This document shows, in pieces, positions 21,412-31,885 of a stretch of 59,911 nt of DNA. The translations under genes and the position numbers were made by a program. This DNA is from a virus (taxonomy: Duplodnaviria > Caudoviricetes), in the IMG/VR virus record IMGVR_UViG_3300040971_000369, positions 1-59,911 of that record; one strand, given 5' to 3'. How positions within the stretch are numbered: position 1 is the first letter of the stretch; each line of letters opens with the position of its first letter. Below the pieces are notes generated by a model. That model was not told where the DNA came from, did no database searches, and saw only the letters and a list, made by a program, of their open reading frames with translations.

Positions 21412-21618
21412 ATGACAGAAATTGGTAAAGTTATCCGGAAACATCGGAAAAATCTCGATTTGAGCCAGTCTCAATTAGCAGATTTGTCTGGACTTGATCG
21501 TACATATATTTCTTTGCTCGAATGCGACAAAAAAAGTCCAACTGTCGAAACACTCGCCAAAATCTCGCAAGCGTTAAGTGTCAAGTTGTCAGAAATATTG
21601 TCTGAGGCTGGCCTATGA
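21412..21618 (+). CDS. R-M controller (C) protein, XRE HTH
   Basis: LSQSQLADLSGLDRTYISLLE..KKSPTVETL; overlaps the REase start (ATGA). Confidence 0.9.
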   Translation: MTEIGKVIRKHRKNLDLSQSQLADLSGLDRTYISLLECDKKSPTVETLAKISQALSVKLSEILSEAGL

Positions 21619-22493
21619 TTCTCTACTGGAAAGATGAAGAGATAAAAGATATTGGGACAATTCCAACTGTATGCGACACTGTTACTCAAGCTCTAAAACA
21701 TGAAATAGAGCAATCGTTTTCAATTTTTTTAGATAATCCATTTATTATCAATGACACAGCATGGTTTGAGTATACAGAAGGGAAAATAAAACCTAGAGTT
21801 ACAAACTGCGCAGAATATATTTCAAAAAAATTTCAAAAAGGCTTGGAACATTTTGAATGGTTCAGTGATTATAAATTAAAAAATCAAGAAATTGATGGCT
21901 ATAAAGAATTTATTTTTCCAAATATTACAGTCCATACAATCTCTGAAGCAAATCTCCGTAACTTACTACTAGCCATGCCATTTGATGAGAATTTCAAGAA
22001 AGCTATTAGTCTATTATATTCATGTAATTTTGAGAAACAAAAATATTTAGCTCCAGCAGGATTCGATCTGCAATTATTTGATCAATCACAAATCTTAACA
22101 CCTATACGTGTCGGACTGGAGTTTGAGACAGGTAATATTGCAAGTTCATTCCGCGCGCTGTCAAAATTGAATTTTCTTTTTGAAGAAAATCAAATCGATC
22201 TTGGTATATTTATTACATCAGATTCAAAAAAAGTTTCTACAAGGATTTGGCCTTCTTCTAACAGAAATGGAAGTCTACAAGAGTTAAGGCAACGAATGTT
22301 TTTAAAAGATGTACGATTGCCAATTTTAATCTGTGGTTTCGCGCCAGATGGTTGGGATATGAAATCATCATATTTAGGAAATAAAGAGCGATACCAAATT
22401 GAAACAGATCGAGAAGAAATTTTAAATTTACAAAATGGCCAATCAATAAAGATGGCTTATTCTTCTCAAAAAAAATTATATAAAAAATTGTAA
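21615..22493 (+). CDS. Type II restriction endonuclease, BamHI-family-like
   Basis: VGLEFETGNIASSFRALSKL resembles BamHI EFETGNISSAHRSMNKL; upstream EIDG and downstream RNGSLQEL. Confidence 0.75.
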   Translation: MILYWKDEEIKDIGTIPTVCDTVTQALKHEIEQSFSIFLDNPFIINDTAWFEYTEGKIKPRVTNCAEYISKKFQKGLEHFEWFSDYKLKNQEIDGYKEFIFPNITVHTISEANLRNLLLAMPFDENFKKAISLLYSCNFEKQKYLAPAGFDLQLFDQSQILTPIRVGLEFETGNIASSFRALSKLNFLFEENQIDLGIFITSDSKKVSTRIWPSSNRNGSLQELRQRMFLKDVRLPILICGFAPDGWDMKSSYLGNKERYQIETDREEILNLQNGQSIKMAYSSQKKLYKKL

Positions 22494-22529
22494 CATATAT
22501 TCTAAGTTTTCTAAATATCACCCCCCCCC

Positions 22530-22882: not shown

Positions 22883-25800
22883 CTATCCAGCCTTGCGATA
22901 TTTTTCGACAAATGTACGCTTCAGCTTTTCGATATTCTCATCAAGGGTGTCAACGCTCGTGGAGCGTTTGTTTTTGTCCAGCACATAGGCCTCCTGCAGG
23001 CGTTTGCCCGTGTCGAACTGTCCCAGCGCCTCACGTACCCGCGAGTACGCCGGATACAGCCGCAGCAGCTTCTCGTTGTCGCGGCGGAATGTTCTGGCCT
23101 CTTTTATGTCATCGGCGCGCTCTTTGCGCAGGGCCGCGGCGGCCGCCGGGTCTTCTTTGTCCAGGGCCAGCAGCGCGGCCCGCAGCTCGCCCAGCTCGCG
23201 GGCGCGCTTGACCACGCGGTTCAGTTCCAGTGCCGCCGCCTCGTATTCCTTGCCCAGCACGTCGGGCTTGCGGGCCGCGCTCATGTGCGCGCCTGCTGAA
23301 GCAAGAAGCGCGGTCAGGCCGTCTTCCTCTCCCTGCAGGTACTTGAGCAGATAGCCCACCTGAATGGGCTGCAGATCGCGCAGCTGTGCCGTCAGGATGG
23401 ACGGCAGGGCGCTGAAGAACAGTTCCTTGGGTTCGTACCGCGTATTTTTGACCGTCCGGCCTGTGGTGGCCAATTCCTTCACGCCCGTGAACGGCCGCTC
23501 GCGGTAGTCGGTCTTGGTGCCCAAAGCGCCCACGATCCGCATCAGCGGCGAGAGCTTGCCCTTGATCAGACTTGCAGGGTCCAAGATGCGCAGGAAGTCG
23601 GCGAAATGCCCAATCACGGAAAACACCTTGCGTTCACCCTTGGGCAGATCCATGCCAAGCCGCTCGTAGATCGGCGTCACGTCCACGCCCGTCCACTTCA
23701 TGCGCCGCAGCGTGTCCCAGTCTGCAAACTGATCCCTGTAGAGATCATACCAATGGTCGTCGTCATCACCAAGCAGGGCCGACACCAGCACCTGCAGGGC
23801 CAGCGTGTGCAGCGCCCCGACCACGATGATCCGCGCCCAGAAGCGTCGATACACCTTGTCCATGCCGGGAGGCGCGGGCACCTCGTGCATCATCCGCGCG
23901 ACGGCGTCGTTCAGCCCGGGCACCATGCCCGTGATCGTGCGCCAGTTCGATTCGGTCCAGTCCGGAGCGAGCAGCAGGAGCCGCAGCCCCGCCTGCACGC
24001 CGGGATGCCTGCCCATGCGCGCCAGGTGCAGACCGCCAAAATCGTCATTGACCAGACGCGCCACCCGCTCGGCCACCAGATCCGGATTGGGCACCCGCCC
24101 TTCCCGGTTCGCTTCGCGGATCTCGGCATCGAGCTGATGCCCATATTCCAGCACGGCGGCCTCGGCCTTGAGCCCGGCAAAATAGCGTTTGAAGAGCGCG
24201 TTGGCCGCCCGTTCGCGGAAGAACCGCCCGCCCCGCACGGCCGCAACGACCTTTTCCGCACCCGGCATGCGGCCGGACAGGTGCGTAAACAGCCGGTCCG
24301 TGATGCCGCGATGCTCAGACGCCGCGCCCTCGGACCAATCAGCCAGTTCGCCCACGGTCAGCCCGTGCCTGATGAGCTGGCGCAGCACGGCGTGATTGGT
24401 CCGGATCTTCTCCAGGCCACGCTTGTGGGCCGATACGGGGTTGATGGCGCTGGCCATTTTCTGCACGGCCCCGGACACGTCGCCCTTGCGCAGCGCTTCC
24501 AGCGCGCCCTGGTTCACGCCAAAGGCCCACGAGCGCGCGCCGGCCAGATGGTGGAAAAAGCTGGTCATCAGAATCCAGCCCTTGGCCGCGTTGTTGAAGG
24601 CCAGAATGGCACGCGGCAAGGGGGCCTTCCACGGGCTGTCCCCGTCCATGGCGCGGGTCATCCTGTTGATGAGGTCCGCCACCTTTTCCGGCGCGTACAG
24701 CGGCACCTTCTCGAAAATATCCACCTCCTGCCGGAACTCCACCCACGCGCCGGGGCTGCCCTGCTCGCGTAGCTCCTCGGCGTAGGCTCGGGCGTCGCGC
24801 TCGTTGTCAAACAGCGTGTCGGCCCGGCGCGCGCCCTTGTCAGCATACACGGCCCAATACCTGTTCGGCACAGACACGTACATCTTGCGACCCTGGCCGT
24901 CGGTACCCAGGAGCCCATACATGTCGCGCATGCGGATCTTGACCCCGGCCTTGCGCACCCAGACATGAAAACCCTTGCCCTGCAGCTCGACGTAGCCCTT
25001 CTGGGCCCGGGCCGACAGCACGCCCTGGGCGCGGCCTTCCTGGATGAACTGCTTGCCCGCCACGATTTGGCCGATCTCTCCGGCAATGGCCGCCCAGCTG
25101 GACGTGATGCCCTTGATCTGCAGGTCATAGCCCTTCATCCAGCCGTCGAAGATGGTTTCGAGCGTGCGGGCCTTGCTTGCCGTGGTGAAGGTCTTGAAGG
25201 CGTGGCCGGCGCCGGAGAAGACGGCCTTGTCGCCATCCTGCGGGCGGTTCCACAGGCGGCGCACGTAGTTGTCCAGCAGCGTGTTGACCACGCCCGCGTT
25301 TTTGGCCTGGGCGCCCACGGTCTCGAAAGCGCTGTTCATGGTTTCGTCCACGAAGTGCTTCTGCTCAATCGTCAGGTTCTCGGCCGCCTCCAGGATACGG
25401 AGCTGATCTTGAATGCGCAGCAGCGCAGCGCCCTTGATCTTTTTGACTTCAAGCTGCTCGCGGGCCCAGTCTTTGAACTCCTGAACCTTGGCGGGGTTGA
25501 TCTGCATTTCCCGATGCACGAGCATGGCCGCGTCCAGCAGGCGGGAGCGGGAGGAATCCTTGAGCTCTTTTTCTGAGGAGAAGACATTTAGGGGGTTGTA
25601 TTTCCACTTTTTGGAGTTTGCCAGGCGCTGCACGGCGCGCTGCATTTCCGTGGCGGCCACCTTTACCTGGTGTTGCACCTGGTCGCGGCCCTCGTGGATC
25701 TTATTGGCGAAGGTGCGGTTTGCCTCCAGTTCGGCCGCGATCTGCTCAGGCGTCATGGGCGTGGCCATGCCGGCCACGGTCTGGGATACTTGGGTAGCGA

Positions 25801-28800
25801 CGCGGAAAAAACGGGTATTGTCACCCTCGCCGAAGGTTTCTAATGATTCGTCCGAAGAACCGCTTTGGCCCGAGATTGCGCTAGGGGTCGCCGAAAGGCG
25901 ATGATTGGTCGGTGCCCTTTCCCAAAGCGGTTCCTTCAAAGCTCCGGTATCTGCGCCAGTTTGCATCCCCGCTTCGGCGGCATCTGCCCTGGTCTTGAAC
26001 GCAGATTCCCGGGGCTTTGTTTTTTTCCCGCCCCGGCTGAACCGAATGTCGTCGTTTGCGGCGTCAAAGCTTCCGGCGTTTCCTGTGACGGACTTCACCT
26101 GCTCCGGGTAAAATGCCACCAACTCAATCGTGCCGTCGGGAAAATCCAGCACCACGCCGTCAAAGCCCTGGTCTTTGAGGCGCTGCGTCCAGCGTGCTAT
26201 AGTCCCCTTGCTCAATCTTCTGAGCTTCTGCTTTCTCTTTAAGTTTGCGAAATAGGGGTTTCGGACAGCGACATACAGGGGCATCACCGCTTGGTTTTTG
26301 AACCTACCTTTCAGGTTCGCGTACGTTTCGGCGATGCGGACGTCGCTTATGAGGTACACCCCCCGGCCCAGCCAGCCGTTGTCCTTTCTGTTCGGATGGT
26401 CCAGGTCGAAGGCGTCTATGGCTTCTGCCGTTCCGTGAAAAAATACTCTGGGTCGTCCCCGGTCATCGAGGCCAACTTCTCTTCCTCTTCGTCCGTCAGC
26501 GGAATCAAATCCACCACCGCGTCGATTTCCTCCTGAGTATGCGCCTGCATCAGCTTTTCCAGCCACTCTTCCTCGTTGAAATCCATCGAACCACCTCCAA
26601 AAATTAACAATCCCGGCCGCACTTCCATGGATGGGCCTGCCCTCGCTGTTTACGGCCGGCCGCTCGATTCCGTCAATACTGATACTTTTTCGGCCTCTCC
26701 CCCGGGACAAGTACGTATTGTCATCCTCATCGGTCGCGCTTATGTTCCCTTCAGAACTGCTTTGGCCCGAGAACGCGTCAGGGGTTGCCGCAAGGCGATG
26801 ATTGGTCTGCGCCCTTTCCCAAAGCAGTTTTTTCTTTTGACGCCCGCCCAGCTCGTTCACAAAATACTCAAGACGCATTGGGCTGGCGGAAACCACTCTC
26901 CAGAAATTTCCGGCCGGATCGAACTCCATCTTGACTGTCGCAGTTTTCCACGTTTTCACACCACGCACCACCAGCAGCACAGAACGCGCGTGCCCCTGAT
27001 ACGCCGCGTCAAAGTTCTCGACGACATGCATCACGAAGTCACGCACGGAAGAAAAGCCCATCCGCTCAATCTCCCTTTGGTGCCGCTCGATGATATGAGT
27101 CATGTCTCCAGGCCCCAGCCGGATCGGCCCGGCCTGCCATCCTATGGCGGCGGCGATCTCCTCAGTGATCATGCCTATGTCCGCCGGGTTCCGGCTCATC
27201 TTCGCCCCGCCCCCATCCACGGCCCGGACCCCCTTGCCCTCAACCGTAGCCCGACGCGCCCGTACGATCAGATCCAGGACATCCGCATCGGTCATTTTCA
27301 GGCCCGGAAACACCCGGCGCAGCGCACGGCGCACTGCGGCCACAAACCTATCCAGCGCCCGGGCGCGAACGCCCGTTTCCGCCCAGTGCGCCAGCACCTC
27401 CTCCACGGCCTCGCGGCGCTGGTCCAGGTTGGACAGATCCAGTTTGTAACCGCTGGCGATCTCCCCGGCCGCATCGCGGACCTTGGCGTTCTCCCAGGCC
27501 AGATCCAGGGCGCGGTTCAGTTCCGCCTTGCGCATGATCAGCCGCAAGCCATGGTGCCCGGTTCCCTCGTGCAGCAGTGTGCGCCGCACGTGGTCCACGT
27601 CGGCCATGCGGTCGGCGATGATGTACACGGTACCGTTGTGATAAACGGCCTGCACGTCACCCTCGGCCCCGGCCTTGCGTACCGCGCCCAGGATCTTCGC
27701 GGGCAGATCCCGCACGGACTGCACCACATTCACCACCGGAGCCTTGGCCCAATTCCCGGCCACGGTGTCCACCACGCCTTGCACGTCGGCCGCGGGCATG
27801 CCCTTGGCAGTGGGTCTGTCGGCGCGGGAGAAAAACACGTCCACATAGCCGTGCACATCGTAACCATTGCCCCGGAACGACTGTAAATTCCCTGCCGCAT
27901 CCTGGTACAGCACATCCAGCACGCGCACGTTCGCGGCCCGCGCCAGGGCCGCAACATTGTGCCACGCCTTCGTATCGAAAATGCCGGGGATTATACCCAG
28001 AACGCCGTTGGCATTGGCGCGGTGCAGGGCCTTCAAGATATTTCCCAGCCCGTTCCCGCGCAGTGTGGCCATATCCTGCGGCGACATGGGCACAAAACCC
28101 ACCACGACATTCTGTGTATTGAGCAGCACTATGCCGGAGTCCGCGCCGCCGGTGATTGTCTTGCTATGCTCAATGAGCACATCCGGATCGCTCAGCCGGA
28201 TAACGCGCTCGGGTTCGTACACGCCGGAGAAAACGCGCACCTGCACAGGAACGCGCTTACCCTTCCCGTTGGATACTGGGATCGGGATATTGCCACCCAG
28301 TTCATTGGCAAAGCTGTTTGACGTGACCGCGAGCATACCCAGCATTTCCACGCCGCTACCCGTGAACAGGTCTCGAAAGACGTTGGCAAGAACCATGTCG
28401 GCATCTGGGGAAAGCTCGGCTTTTTCGCCTGGATGGTTGTGCGCCAGATAGACGTACCTGGCCCCGGGCACATCGAGCACGGAGCCAGCCAGAATCGAAG
28501 ATTCGGCCACGGTTGAGGAGGTAGCTCCCTTGGAGTGGTGAAGAATCACCAGGGGCTTGTTTTTGGCGTCCAGCACCAGGGCAACCATGTTTTCCTGGGG
28601 CTGTTCGGCCAGACTCGCCACGGCGACAGCCGCGTCAAGATCGGACTCTATTCTTGCGGGGACTTCTTGCTCTCCAGCTGTTTTAAGCAGGACCGAACGT
28701 ACTCCTGGGAGGCGTCCAGCGCTTCCTGGCTCGGCTCCGGAATCAGAATCCGCTCCTCGCCTTCCGGATATGTCACCTTCACGCTCGTTTTCCGGCTCGG

Positions 28801-31800
28801 ATTCGGCAAGGGTTCTTTCTTTTCCATATTCACCTCCATTTTGCCCGGCCCTGACAGTTTCGGACGCAACGCCGACAGCCGCGTCAAGATCTGATCCTAT
28901 TTTTTCGGAGACTTCTTGCTTTCCAGTTGTTTCAAGCAGGACCGAACGGACTCCTGGAAGACTTTCCACTCTTGCGGCGCTGGAATCAGGCCACTCTTTG
29001 CCCACCTCGCGCAGGGTATTGGGCTTTTGGGCCGGGTCGTGCGGCGGGGCGTTGGCCTGCTCCGTGTCCGATTCGGCGCGCTGGTCAAAGACTTCCTTGC
29101 CTTCGCGGTAATCCTGGCGCTCCTGCAGGCGGCGCAGGATCTCGTCTATCTCCGTGCGTGCATCGTCCACGGCGCGGCTGTAATCCTGCTCGATGGCCTT
29201 TTTGGACTGCACGCGGTCGCGCAGCAGGTCCATCAGGTTCTGAACCTCGCGGTCGATTGCCAGTTCCGGAACCTCAGCGCTCAACATGTCCGCCAGCTCG
29301 TCCAGCATGGCCCCGTCTCTGGACACGAAACCCAGTCCAAACCTGGACTGCATCCACTGGATTCCGTCCCGGCCCATCTGCTCCCGGGCATGGTCGTAAT
29401 TGATCCCGCCCAGCTTGCGGATGCGTGAAATCACGCGCTCATGGATGTCCAGGGCATGATCCCGCACTTCGGCATGCATGCTCATTTCATAAGCCAGATC
29501 AGCCAGGCGCGTCTCGCTCTCATCACGTTCGGCCTGCTCGATGAGCCCGGCTTCTTCCTCCGTCAACGCACCGGCATCAACCAGGTGCCGCGTTACGTTG
29601 TCGGCATAGTCCAGCGCTTCGGCTATTCGAGATTGATCCTCGACAAAAGATCCTGCCTGAAGGCTTCCCCCTTGTCCTTGGTCATCCTGTTGAACAGTCC
29701 CCGCTTGAACGTCGCCGACCGGCCCACCGTGGTCTTGTTGAAAGCCCTGGCCAGCCTGTCCAACGTCTTCTCCGCCCGCTCCGCTTTGTCCTCGGTCATC
29801 CATCCCCTCCTGCTTGTGCTGCCCTGCCACTTCCCCAAACGAAACTGCCTGATCGAAAATCGAAACATGCCCGGGAGGCGCAGCCCCTTCACCGCCACCA
29901 AACCCGCCTCCCTGATCGTTCACGGGCTCCGCTGGCTGCCGCTCCATCCAATACCGCCCCTTGTACCGCGCCAGCACCTCGGGCGGCACAGGCAAGCCCT
30001 GCTCCAGGGCCTCGCGCACATGGCGCTCGTGCGTGTTCATCCTGGACTTGGGGCCGTCGGGCTTGGCTTCCAGGTACTCGTCCTGAGTCATCTGCCAGGG
30101 GGCCTTGGCAGGTTCCGACAGATCGACGGCAGGCTGTAAACTTTCCATGGCCGCGCCGCTGGTTAAGGAAACGGCGTTTTCGTTTCCTTGCGCAAGGGGC
30201 GGAGCCGCCCCGGGTTCCGCCGGGGCAGACATCATGCCCTGCAGCTCTTCGGGCGTAAATGGGGTGTTCGGCGCCTGTTGCGCTACTGGCGCTACAGGCT
30301 GCGCCCCATCCGGGACGAATTCACCACCCACGGGAACAGCCGCCTCGGCTGCAACGCGCTGAGACTCCTTGAACGCGGCGTCACCCTCGGGGGTGCCCAG
30401 GATGGCCGGGTTGATCTCGTTTGCCTCGTCCACCACGGGGACATCGTTCATCTGCCCCAACGTATCGGCCAGATCGTCCACGCGGTCCGCGACCGTGGGC
30501 GCTGCGGCCCCTGCAGGCGCGGAAGGCGCGGCGGGCGGCGGTGTTGCCGGATCGGTCGGGGAGAGATTCAGCAGATCCACTTCCCGGCCCTGGTCCAGGG
30601 CATCGGCTGCGGCCTGCGTGTGGGCCGGGTCCGGAGCGGCGGCTTGTGTTTTGGACGGGTCCGGAGCGGCGGTTTGTGTTTTGGACGGGTCCGGAGCGGC
30701 GGTTTGCGTGTGGGCCGGGTCCGGAGCCGGGTCATTTTTGTCACGCGGCTTGGACATGGGCGACGAAAGAACATGTCCACCAGCGCCAACCATGAATGTT
30801 CCGGGAATAACAGCGGCCTCCTCGCGTGCGCCCTTGGCCACGGCCTGAACCACACTTTGCGGCTCCGCCTCGGTCCGCGCGATGCCAAGGCCCGAACGCG
30901 CGTCCTCGACCAGGCCGTTCCTTATCCATGGGAGCTTACCGGCCGTCTCGGCTATGGCCTGCACCGGACCTTCAAGCCATTCAGTCAGTGCCTCCTTGCC
31001 ACCCGTGAGGAGGATCTTGGCCCCGCGCTTGGCCAGCCCGTCCACCACTTCCTTACTCAAAATGCCATCCAGACCAACCTTGTTCAGCCAGATCGAGGTC
31101 AACCCGTATCCGGTCGAGCGCCCCAATGCCTCCGTGGGTGCCACGCCTTTCTTCAGCTGATCGGCCAGCATGCCGCCACCTTCCATGAGTCCGCCGACAA
31201 CACCGCCGGCCGTGGACGCCATGGATACCGGGACAGACATGGCTGCGGCAATGACCGGGAGCATGGACCCGGCCGCGTCCGCGCCACCTTCGAGCATGTA
31301 GCCGGGGTTCAGGAGCAGGGATGGATCATCGAGAAAGTCCTTACCCTTGCGGTATTGCGGCACGCGATCATCGGCGAATTTGCGACCCGAAGCCCAATCA
31401 GCATGAGCACTCTTGCCTTGGCCGATAAGCCAGTCCCCGCCCCGGCGCATGGCCTCAGTCAAAGGGTCGGACTCGCCGTGCGCCGTGTCGGCGAAATCGG
31501 CCATGGCGTGCAGGCCTGCGCCAGGAATGTCATAAAACAGGTTGGCGCTGAAATCGCCCAGGGCCGCGCCGGTCCTGATGGCGGACCGCACTGGCCATGC
31601 CGCGTCGGAAGACAGGACGCCGGGCTCGACTTCGGTTGACGCTGCTTTCAGCGCGGCAGCATCCTCCGCCGTAAACGGCGCTGTCTCAAACGGGTCAAAA
31701 TCCACCTGTTCGAGCGCGTATTGTTTGTTTTGCTGGCTTGCGGCGGCATCATCCGCAAACGGGTCGAAATCCACCAGTTCCAACACAGCGTCAGGCTGCT

Positions 31801-31885
31801 CCTCCTCCCAGTCCGATAGAGCCGTTTCCCCCCTTCGCGCATCCTGAAAAGGGTCGAAATCCACCCGTTCGAGAACAACCGTCAT
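22883..31885 (-). CDS. Large polyvalent virion/ejection protein (3000 aa): tandem JAB/RadC, zincin metallopeptidase (MPTase), PBECR-like nuclease, ART (ADP-ribosyltransferase)-like domain, helical C-terminus
   Basis: AHNHPG...SPDAD (JAB); [10 protein letters not shown]...EEVLA (MPTase); HIIERH...WRVVSA (PBECR-like); FHGT...GRGVYL...GFDGVV...EQVKS...N.GSFD (ART-PolyVal); AGGAG SD. Confidence 0.9.
25818..25937 (+). ncRNA. Putative antisense structured small RNA, copy 2, with promoter
   Basis: TTGTCA-N17-TAATGAT; stem GAACCGCTTTGG/CCAAAGCGGTTC; internal TCGCC-GAAA-GGCGA. Confidence 0.55.
26416..26586 (-). CDS. Nested +1-frame acidic 56-aa ORF inside the ART-domain coding region
   Basis: GGAGGT-N6-ATG; [56 protein letters not shown]. 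Confidence 0.65.
   Translation of the reverse strand: MDFNEEEWLEKLMQAHTQEEIDAVVDLIPLTDEEEEKLASMTGDDPEYFFTERQKP
26718..26838 (+). ncRNA. Putative antisense structured small RNA, copy 1, with promoter and U-tract
   Basis: TTGTCA-N17-TATGTT; stem AGAACTGCTTTGG/CCAAAGCAGTTTT; internal TTGCC-GCAA-GGCGA; followed by a T-run. Confidence 0.65.
28612..28961. repeat. Imperfect ~100-bp direct duplication (28612-28712 and 28861-28961; offset 249)
   Basis: LPGVRSVLL[E/K]T[T/A]G[K/E]QEV...SDLDAAV occurs twice in the polyvalent protein. Confidence 0.9.
28648..28827 (-). CDS. Nested +1-frame 59-aa ORF immediately before the JAB domain
   Basis: GGAGGTGAAT-ATG; [59 protein letters not shown]; synonymous-substitution pattern in the duplicate copy. 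Confidence 0.65.
   Translation of the reverse strand: MEKKEPLPNPSRKTSVKVTYPEGEERILIPEPSQEALDASQEYVRSCLKQLESKKSPQE
29623..29799 (-). CDS. Nested +1-frame basic 58-aa ORF
   Basis: AGGAGG-N6-ATG; [58 protein letters not shown]. Confidence 0.55.
   Translation of the reverse strand: MTEDKAERAEKTLDRLARAFNKTTVGRSATFKRGLFNRMTKDKGEAFRQDLLSRINLE
30608..30727. repeat. 30-bp tandem repeat x4 ([20 protein letters not shown])
   Basis: GGGTCCGGAGCGGCGG... repeated every 30 nt. Confidence 0.9.

Follow-up and report, generated by a model that had tools for sequence, protein, structure and literature searches.

The type I antitoxins of the RatA/txpA and SR4/bsrG pairs, like the OOP RNA of phage lambda, are short antisense RNAs with their own promoters, which overlap their partners convergently at the 3′ end. 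Rickettsia palindromic elements are dispersed selfish repeats found in many unrelated genes. In toxin-antitoxin (TA) systems of type III, the antitoxin is an RNA of tandem 34-36-nucleotide (nt) repeats, which lie immediately upstream of the toxin gene, share its strand and undergo processing by the toxin. Here we describe an element of ~85 nt, resembling each of these in part, which occurs twice in a 59,911-nt stretch of DNA from a virus of the Caudoviricetes (IMG/VR record IMGVR_UViG_3300040971_000369, class provirus; the whole stretch is called the window below). An earlier note on this DNA had drawn attention to two copies of a promoter-bearing, covarying antisense RNA, placed behind PBECR-like nuclease and ART domains. 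By comparing the window with related loci in other phages we show an element whose predicted fold is conserved, covarying and strand-specific, which has a promoter-like sequence on one side and a terminator-like one on the other, and which is associated with one domain family, a PBECR3-like RNase-like domain; each copy is predicted to be a compact small-RNA (sRNA) gene on the + strand with a sigma-70-type promoter.

The resemblance to the type III systems ToxI/ToxN, CptIN and TenpIN lies in the coupling of a structured, pseudoknot-capable sRNA, its proposed neutraliser, to an endoribonuclease-type toxin, and in the use of repeated units, of which there are two here, with tandem peptide repeats in some relatives. 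However, the units here are single four-helix structures, on the opposite strand, inside the 3′ coding end of the domain and with their own predicted promoter; the two lie 897 nt apart inside an open reading frame (ORF) rather than as a tandem array upstream, and the partner is of the BECR/RelE-like fold (a weak PBECR3 assignment) rather than of the ToxN/AbiQ, CptN or TenpN type. Position, strand, repeat form and toxin type all differ from those that define the ToxIN-like families, so that the element is not a member of these, although it might still work like a type III antitoxin (below). The type I antitoxins and OOP are likewise short antisense RNAs that have promoters of their own, end in a terminator-like structure and run convergently into the 3′ end of the toxin or phage gene that they overlap, a form which the element shares; the opposite-strand overlap is seen in a G·U bias of 20:0, and promoter and terminator were found as consensus matches only (in 11/11 and 8/11 sequences, respectively). 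Unlike in type I pairs, the partner is a soluble alpha/beta domain of ~130 amino acids (aa) within a 3000-aa virion-associated protein, not a small (<~60 aa) hydrophobic peptide, and unlike in the type I and OOP RNAs, sequence and four-helix fold persist from phage to phage where the flanking DNA is no more alike than random sequence, and there is no Rfam match.

Like a Rickettsia palindromic element, it is a palindromic element of ~100 nt that is read through in frame, with a peptide that follows the nucleotide constraint; but it is tied to one domain family, is found once per viral record in 5/5 other records (and twice in this window), and has a promoter-like site and strand-specific G·U pairs. 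Like a Rho-independent terminator, it has a GC-containing stem followed by a U-tract (in 8/11), but this stem encloses a 56-nt covarying interior of three hairpins and a promoter-like site lies 3-33 nt upstream, giving the layout of a whole transcription unit. We therefore file the element as kin of the toxin-linked antisense and antitoxin sRNAs, and as a member of neither type I nor type III. It has the look of an RNA family that was not described before and that goes with a toxin-like module; our literature searches, on PBECR and polyvalent proteins, RNA antitoxins and structured antisense prophage RNAs, brought up no description of it. Term searches of the 2017 polyvalent-protein paper (PMC5512222) found no instance of ‘immunity protein’, ‘antisense’ or ‘noncoding RNA’.

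A minus-strand ORF of 3000 aa (P0001, 22883-31885 in the ORF list and translation; Table 1) contains the two copies, each of them in frame, and copy A adjoins the PBECR3-like domain and copy B the ART domain. The duplication reported in the earlier note is confirmed as an 82-nt direct repeat (25856-25937 and 26753-26834), 85% identical, with a true spacing of 897 nt, or 299 codons, where 900 nt had been given; the repeat overlaps ORF codons ~1684-1712 and ~1983-2011. It is found only twice in the whole record, our covariance model (R1) likewise finds two copies only, and a 42-nt degenerate core pattern has exactly two occurrences in the window against none expected (100 shuffles). The terminal stems are perfect over 12 nt (GAACCGCTTTGG/CCAAAGCGGTTC) and 11 nt (AACTGCTTTGG/CCAAAGCAGTT). 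Read from the alignment, the copies differ at ~10 nucleotides in 25 codons, three of these differences being synonymous and seven not. The claimed compensatory change of the terminal stem, U-A in one copy and C-G in the other, is real and alters both of the encoded amino acids (P/L and G/S), and the inner hairpin does read UUGCC-GCAA-GGCGA in one copy and UCGCC-GAAA-GGCGA in the other. The closest relative protein, P0004, is 88% identical and has both copies of the peptide. Against dinucleotide shuffles the + strand folding energies give z = -2.5 and -3.5. Taken alone, the window does not make a compelling case, with two sequences, promoter hits in one GC-poor patch and a folding energy that is ordinary against recodings (below). 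Two other inverted repeats, of 13 and 11 nt at 23172/23269 and 24331/24393, were rejected as further copies, as R1 finds only two in the window. A programmed -1 frameshift on the sense strand was also discarded, since by eye the A-run is present only in copy A and its register is not a slippery one.

When 2.9 million viral contigs were searched with a codon-degenerate pattern for K-x-x-L-W-E-R-A-Q-[ST]-N, 9 loci were found, and the exact-codon pattern TGGGAAAGGGCGCAGNCCAATC recovered the same 9/9, so that every locus uses identical codons. A further scan gave 13 new loci, of which the covariance model took three as real (L039 and L032/L041) and the other ten as chance matches; the final set is 11 distinct sequences. 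Several of these were found with a nucleotide pattern that itself fixes 15-21 bases of the 3′ half, the codon-degenerate scan being the unbiased one. In the DNA of the loci a near-invariant framework of bases surrounds a middle hairpin that is wholly different from locus to locus with its pairing kept (TCGCC/GGCGA, AGCCG/CGGCT, ACCCG/CGGGT, GAGTC/GACTC, ACTC/GAGT, GATTG/CAATC), and the outer stem has compensatory synonymous changes, CTC with CAG replacing CTT with CAA. Mean pairwise identity is 0.77 in the element versus 0.59-0.60 in the flanking ORF, where random sequences score 0.57-0.60 in the same way. In the five other viral records searched with R1 there was one copy per record.

A divergent subfamily, L021 and L023, was reached through the peptide P-L-W-E-R-A-G-P, and R1 scores both at 22 bits in the same orientation. 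In L021 the 3′ arm GGCCAAAGCGG is retained but in another frame, giving E-A-K-A-A instead of G-Q-S-G. This GC-rich subfamily (L021 6245-6334, L023 6925-7015; peptide PLWERAGPSAS...) keeps the closing stem and orientation with a different interior, and may need a covariance model of its own.

Other routes to relatives returned nothing. Patterns on the middle of the peptide (RA[QP]TNHRL; NHRL-x-ATP-x-A-x-SGQS) gave no other copy in viral, metagenome or genome contigs; as the peptide middle corresponds to the variable hairpin, such patterns are too specific. Locus searches with P0002 found only distant ART or pre-ART matches, blastn and tblastn against phage and plasmid collections found nothing relevant, and homologous-protein searches with the 49-aa peptide and, for near relatives, with the 176-aa domain found none. 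A pattern with an R-to-G codon variant matched 5 loci, none of them an R1 match, and the element was not found in 802 genomes of two sampled classes, where four pattern hits with mismatches were all local chance matches. Comparison with Rfam showed no match to a known family: cmscan with Rfam 15 (E<=10) of window positions 25000-27800 gave only a chance CRISPR-DR29 hit away from the element, and a scan of three other loci at E<=5 yielded two hits, both weak, unrelated and off the element. A tRNA, tmRNA or tRNA mimic was rejected, ARAGORN reporting 0 genes in 25500-27200 and the four-helix layout being only superficially cloverleaf-like.

The structure was tested with the 11 distinct sequences, using alignment A7, over 30 proposed pairs (327 cells) and against 500 shuffles. 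Pairing is possible in 90.5% of cells (97.2% in an earlier set of nine sequences), and in 13 of the 30 pairs, amounting to 40 cells, both sides have changed. None of the 500 shuffles matched the observed pairing, the double-change counts or the covariation score, and 15 matched the count of further pair types; when the partner is slid by 1-3 columns, pairing falls to 32-54%. The proposal of a structured, covarying element is upheld by these results. The fold comprises a 12-base-pair closing stem (P1) that joins the 5′ and 3′ ends (6/12 pairs covary), a CCC/GGG stem (P2) with a 12-15-nt loop (2/3 covary), a sequence-variable hairpin (P3) of 4-5 base pairs (5/5 covary), and P4 (GAUUGG...CCUUUC), whose loop has 7 nt. 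Pairing is possible between the loops of P2 and P4 (GCGY with GCGC). P4, which is made complete in L032 by a UU-to-GA change, and this loop-loop pairing are put forward as proposals. Two structural details of the earlier note did not hold. An extra helix between AGGG and CCCU had been suggested, but covariation instead pairs CCC (26766-26768) with GGG (26781-26783), and in L019 a G-to-A change is compensated in the CCC arm and not in CCCU. Likewise the GNRA tetraloop, said to be kept, is not a family feature, as it is present by eye in 5/11 distinct sequences.

The strand of the fold could also be determined. In the orientation opposite the ORF there are 20 G·U cells, at 13 pair positions, and no A·C cells; as these G·U cells would be A·C mismatches on the sense strand, the folded strand is the window + strand, in keeping with the antisense orientation first claimed. 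RNAalifold gives -29.9 kcal/mol opposite the ORF versus -23.6 kcal/mol in the sense orientation.

Promoter-like sites were sought by script with a sigma-70-like consensus within 74 nt upstream, requiring A2 and T6 of the -10 hexamer, for 11 elements (nine of the main family plus L021 and L023). All 11 have a -35/-10 match of 8-10 of 12, and in nine the -10 ends 3-12 nt before a reference point four bases into the aligned element; overall the sites lie 3-33 nt upstream of the element. In 74-nt windows of the same loci, the background frequency of such scores is 0.4-0.7% where the site scores 10/12 (four sites), 3.1% for the pair of sites in the window and 0.9-24% for the remainder, and as the sequences come from related loci these are not independent trials. 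With L039 (TTGGCA-17-TAGATT) and L032 (TTGACA-17-TAAATT), which were read by eye, a promoter-like site, defined by consensus match only, is present upstream of all 11 distinct sequences, in DNA that is otherwise at random-level identity. The promoter described for copy A is there as described, and that of copy B was misread in part: it is TTGTCA-18-AATGAT, not TTGTCA-N17-TAATGAT, both sites scoring 9/12. The two copies share the -35 region GTATTGTCA(C/T)CCTC, opposite which the D-N-T peptide is encoded. All 6 promoter-like hits of the 9-kb gene in a consensus scan are confined to 25818-26865, and because they cluster in a GC-poor patch, promoter matches within the window are, alone, weak evidence. 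Downstream, at least 5 T follow directly after P1 in 8/11 distinct copies (by eye), where the sense strand encodes a KNKK peptide. The T-run described after the closing stem is thus present in copy A (26828-26833, then CTTTT), but not in copy B, L039 or L032, and the 3′ end of copy B is undefined.

The partner domain is labelled ‘PBECR3-like’ because its PBECR3 match is below the Pfam gathering threshold (E 0.01; 16.2 bits versus a cut-off of 30). An AlphaFold model of the domain and its tail has a mean predicted local distance difference test (pLDDT) score of 81, exceeding 95 over model residues 11-80, and depicts a confident alpha/beta domain. In Foldseek its best matches are RNase toxins of the BECR/RelE type, CdiA-CT (7m5f_C) and BrnT (3u97), each at probability 0.99 with E 0.011 and 0.042, and RelE (3g5o_B) is matched at probability 0.77; E values overall are 0.011-0.07, with no match at E<=0.001 in the pdb search. 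The fold search fits, weakly, a BECR/RelE-type RNase. The linkage to a PBECR-like domain noticed in the window extends to other, unrelated phages, in which the same PBECR3-like RNase-fold domain is found: all copies whose flank was translated, except copy B, sit at the end of this domain family.

The last 8-10 residues of the domain (KKLLWERAQ) overlap RNA copy A, and the tail (F/Y)xKNKxPLWERAQ(S/T)N...TPSA(I/V)SGQS is a family-wide C-terminal extension. When 1.84 billion representatives were searched by phmmer with the domain and its tail, 399 relatives reached E<=1e-3. Among the 150 best of these, 99 have x-W-[EDQ]-[RKGS] at the expected place, and 80 of those 99 have a G-Q-S-like second arm 12-34 residues past the W; the other 51 are mostly close variants, and 8 of the 51 are proteins that end before the place. 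The tail peptide is also present in stand-alone proteins of 130-260 aa, such as P0139, which ends ...SGQSSA. In some relatives the tail is doubled, adjacently in P0130, P0150 and P0219 and ~107 residues apart in P0267, and each doubled peptide is presumably a doubled RNA unit. The idea that the peptide is a by-product of an RNA constraint holds for only part of it. From about model residue 139 onward it is disordered (pLDDT <50), and this part looks, from the model, like a read-through of the RNA gene; but K-x-L-L-W-E-R-A-Q is conserved family-wide and modelled as a strand and short helix packed on the domain (block pLDDT 85, then 66), so this first part may matter to the protein too. Since the RNA is written over the last residues of the domain and the disordered linker, domain and RNA move as one module.

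Table 1. Positions of the features discussed, in window coordinates.
Feature	Positions	Strand	Basis and remarks
P0001, polyvalent-protein ORF, 3000 aa	22883..31885	-	ORF list and translation; both RNA copies inside, in frame
PBECR3-like (BECR/RelE-fold) RNase-like domain, residues ~1569-1696	26798..27181	-	weak Pfam, AlphaFold, Foldseek
ART-PolyVal domain, residues 1807-1940	26066..26467	-	Pfam PF18760, between the two RNA copies
Promoter-like site, copy A	26718..26746	+	-35 TTGTCA 26718-26723, 17-nt spacer, -10 TATGTT 26741-26746; 9/12
Predicted sRNA copy A	26752..26839	+	R1 97.9 bits, E 2e-24; predicted start near 26753
Copy A P1	26754-26765/26819-26830	+	from alignment A7, checked on sequence
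Copy A P2	26766-26768/26781-26783	+	CCC/GGG, from A7
Copy A P3	26785-26789/26794-26798	+	loop GCAA, from A7
Copy A P4 (proposed)	26800-26805/26813-26818	+	from A7
Copy A possible loop-loop pairing	26775-26778/26809-26812	+	from A7
Copy A U-tract	26828-26838	+	T-run 26828-26833, then CTTTT
Promoter-like site, copy B	25818..25847	+	-35 TTGTCA 25818-25823, 18-nt spacer, -10 AATGAT 25842-25847; 9/12
Predicted sRNA copy B	25855..25942	+	R1 98.4 bits; 12-nt perfect inverted repeat
Copy B P1	25857-25868/25922-25933	+	P3 loop GAAA

We tentatively favour the reading that the RNA is a putative antidote which binds the RNase-like domain and works like a type III antitoxin, a reading that we regard as possible rather than probable. 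A cell that harbours the phage or is producing it would make the RNA, whose conserved fold and loops would enable it to recognise the domain protein and so neutralise the RNase-like domain; the antisense overlap would chiefly keep the toxin module and its antidote genetically inseparable while the domains of polyvalent proteins are shuffled. A cis-antisense RNA of any sequence will be complementary to its target, yet the synonymous sites opposite RNA positions outside the Watson-Crick helices (A7 columns 59, 67 and 68) are invariant in 11/11, and the 5′ half of the RNA is conserved though the peptide that it encodes is predicted to be disordered; both favour a partner other than the mRNA. The phage carries a second copy of the RNA, behind the ART domain. 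A further step, which we hold to be more doubtful, is that this might be a portable toxin-antidote cassette, with the antidote RNA dual-coded opposite the 3′ end of the toxin domain and the same sequence doubling as a junction for module exchange. If there is such a cassette, an RNase-like effector domain would carry its RNA immunity along at every domain shuffling, and this would be a new class of RNA-protein TA pairing as well as a mechanism for the safe shuffling of domains in phage effector genes.

Several results weigh against this reading. The RNase assignment is weak, with a Pfam score below cut-off and no Foldseek E value <=0.001, and copy B lies behind the ART domain rather than an RNase-like one and is without a U-tract, being one of the 3/11 copies that have none. 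The closing ‘terminator’ stem spans a 56-nt multi-branch loop, which is odd for an intrinsic terminator, and P4 and the loop-loop pairing show no double changes, their pairs being invariant or wobble only. The 11 sequences are related, and conservation of their 3′ half is partly due to ascertainment; this 3′-half invariance could also come from constraint on the protein (LWERAQ) and the helices, with no sequence-specific partner. Compared with synonymous recodings, moreover, the folding energy is ordinary (z -0.8 to -1.95, with 35-204 of 1000 recodings folding equally well or better), which is why folding energy was dropped as a statistic and covariation used instead.

The closest alternative is that the sRNA is purely a cis-antisense regulator, in the manner of a type I antitoxin with 3′ overlap or of lambda OOP, which pairs with its perfect complement in the polyvalent-protein mRNA and leads to its cleavage or to a block of translation; leaky expression of the giant gene would be silenced in lysogens in this way, with the fold serving only for stability, termination and fast pairing. 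We consider this rather unlikely, and as a choice between a cis-antisense repressor and the antidote that we favour it is close. Running antisense, the RNA overlaps in full the 3′ end of the domain coding region, a promoter-like site and a U-tract are present, and in the stand-alone relatives the ORF ends at or just past the element (P0139 ...SGQSSA), in a convergent 3′-overlap layout, which is that of known type I pairs; dual coding together with helix constraint may, in addition, explain most of the invariant bases. Pairing of this kind needs no conserved primary sequence, however, yet the element is 0.77 identical between flanks at random level. Typical antisense RNAs are simpler than a four-helix junction with a possible loop-loop contact; the site is also far from the start of the 9-kb ORF, in its middle part, and the toxin-like partner belongs to a large protein as one of its domains and is not a small membrane peptide. 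Conservation of fold and loops, and a promoter-like site of its own, would suit a structured RNA that acts in trans on something other than the domain and the domain mRNA, for instance as a decoy or sponge for a factor or defence system of the host, and that hitch-hikes in the coding region. Copy B would be consistent with this, as it has a full R1 score (98.4 bits) though it is not beside the RNase-like domain, as would the presence of two copies here and tandem copies in some relatives; but such an RNA leaves its link to one domain family (copy B apart) unexplained and is without a candidate target, and we judge it distinctly unlikely.

Two further readings dispense with a functional transcript. 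In one, which we regard as very improbable, the element acts as DNA, either as a recombination or module-shuffling junction or as a single-strand hairpin signal. The two direct repeats do bracket the ART module exactly, 897 nt apart, GC is lower between them than in their flanks, and one contig (X5) matches the C-terminal module up to 25823 and then diverges, at the edge of the copy B promoter. G·T pairs are tolerated in single-stranded DNA too; but recombination requires neither helices, nor compensatory changes, nor a strand bias, and leaves the promoter-like sites and U-tracts unexplained. A recombination role could still be a side effect of the nucleotide conservation. In the other, the repeat belongs to the protein only, as a linker, docking or cleavage motif, with incidental base pairing. 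Conservation of the peptide in ~100 diverse proteins, the modelled packing of an ordered LLWERAQ on the domain and the energy test against recodings, which was not significant, all speak for this. It does not account for the identical codons in 9/9 loci, for a P3 peptide that is free to vary while pairing is kept in 5/5, for the arm of L021 that is in another frame, for a compensatory change between the window copies that alters both amino acids (P/L, G/S), or for the strand-specific G·U bias. This protein-only reading is largely refuted, and we give it hardly any credence.

Structured RNAs of bacteria and phages have mostly been sought intergenically, while this one is hidden in frame inside coding sequence, with a conserved ‘peptide motif’ that it appears to impose on ~100 proteins; conserved linker peptides in polyvalent proteins can thus be shadows of nucleic-acid constraints. 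If expressed, the element would add a new family of RNAs, clearly covarying and associated with a predicted RNase effector domain, and would be relevant to how a phage copes with producing an RNase effector of its own. The domain and the 85-nt RNA make a simple, testable pair for toxin-antitoxin work in laboratory strains.

Regarding the setting of the two copies, P0001 has a RadC-like JAB domain (Pfam; residues 1089-1190) and the ART-PolyVal domain, which passes its Pfam gathering threshold (PF18760; 84.8 bits versus a cut-off of 31.2). The presence of both indicates that P0001 is a phage ‘polyvalent protein’ in the sense of PMC5512222. Among the PHROGs matches of the genes adjoining it are families of internal virion proteins and of tail fibres. 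Over the stretch that holds the RNase-like and ART modules (26000-27100), GC is mostly 54-59% in sliding windows, versus 63-69% on either side within the same ORF, a contrast which suggests that the modules may differ in origin. The X5 contig, from an unrelated lake-water run, matches the C-terminal module of the giant gene only as far as 25823 (region 25780-25823), exactly at the -35 of copy B, with unlike sequence beyond, a pattern suggestive of a mosaic breakpoint where the RNA gene begins to border on this module; the contigs of this run do not cover the element. No RNA run was among the sequencing runs listed as containing this DNA.

A module-end peptide, (Q)(I/V)KS(A/V)T..., at residues ~1933-1955 of P0001, recurs after domains in polyvalent proteins of two metagenome-assembled genomes, one of Neisseria and one of Faecalibacterium (L009 4001-4132 and L010 2878-3003); the DNT(Y/R)(L/F) motifs which follow both RNA copies look like the end of this peptide. 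Other repeats are found within the giant gene. A second in-frame direct repeat (28616-28724 and 28865-28973; 109 nt, 83% identical, 249 nt apart) encodes a peptide just before the RadC/JAB domain, five tandem 30-nt repeats at 30576-30755 encode units of PDP(A/S)(H/K)TQ(T/A)AA, and at the 5′ end of the ORF a 38-nt repeat in three copies (31681-31877) encodes L-E-x-V-D-F-D-P-F. For the C-terminal 985 residues of the protein (22883-25840), Pfam gave no match at E<=1. Immediately downstream of the gene, at 22000-22500 and around a + strand ORF (21615-22493) without a PHROGs match, GC drops to 32-37%.

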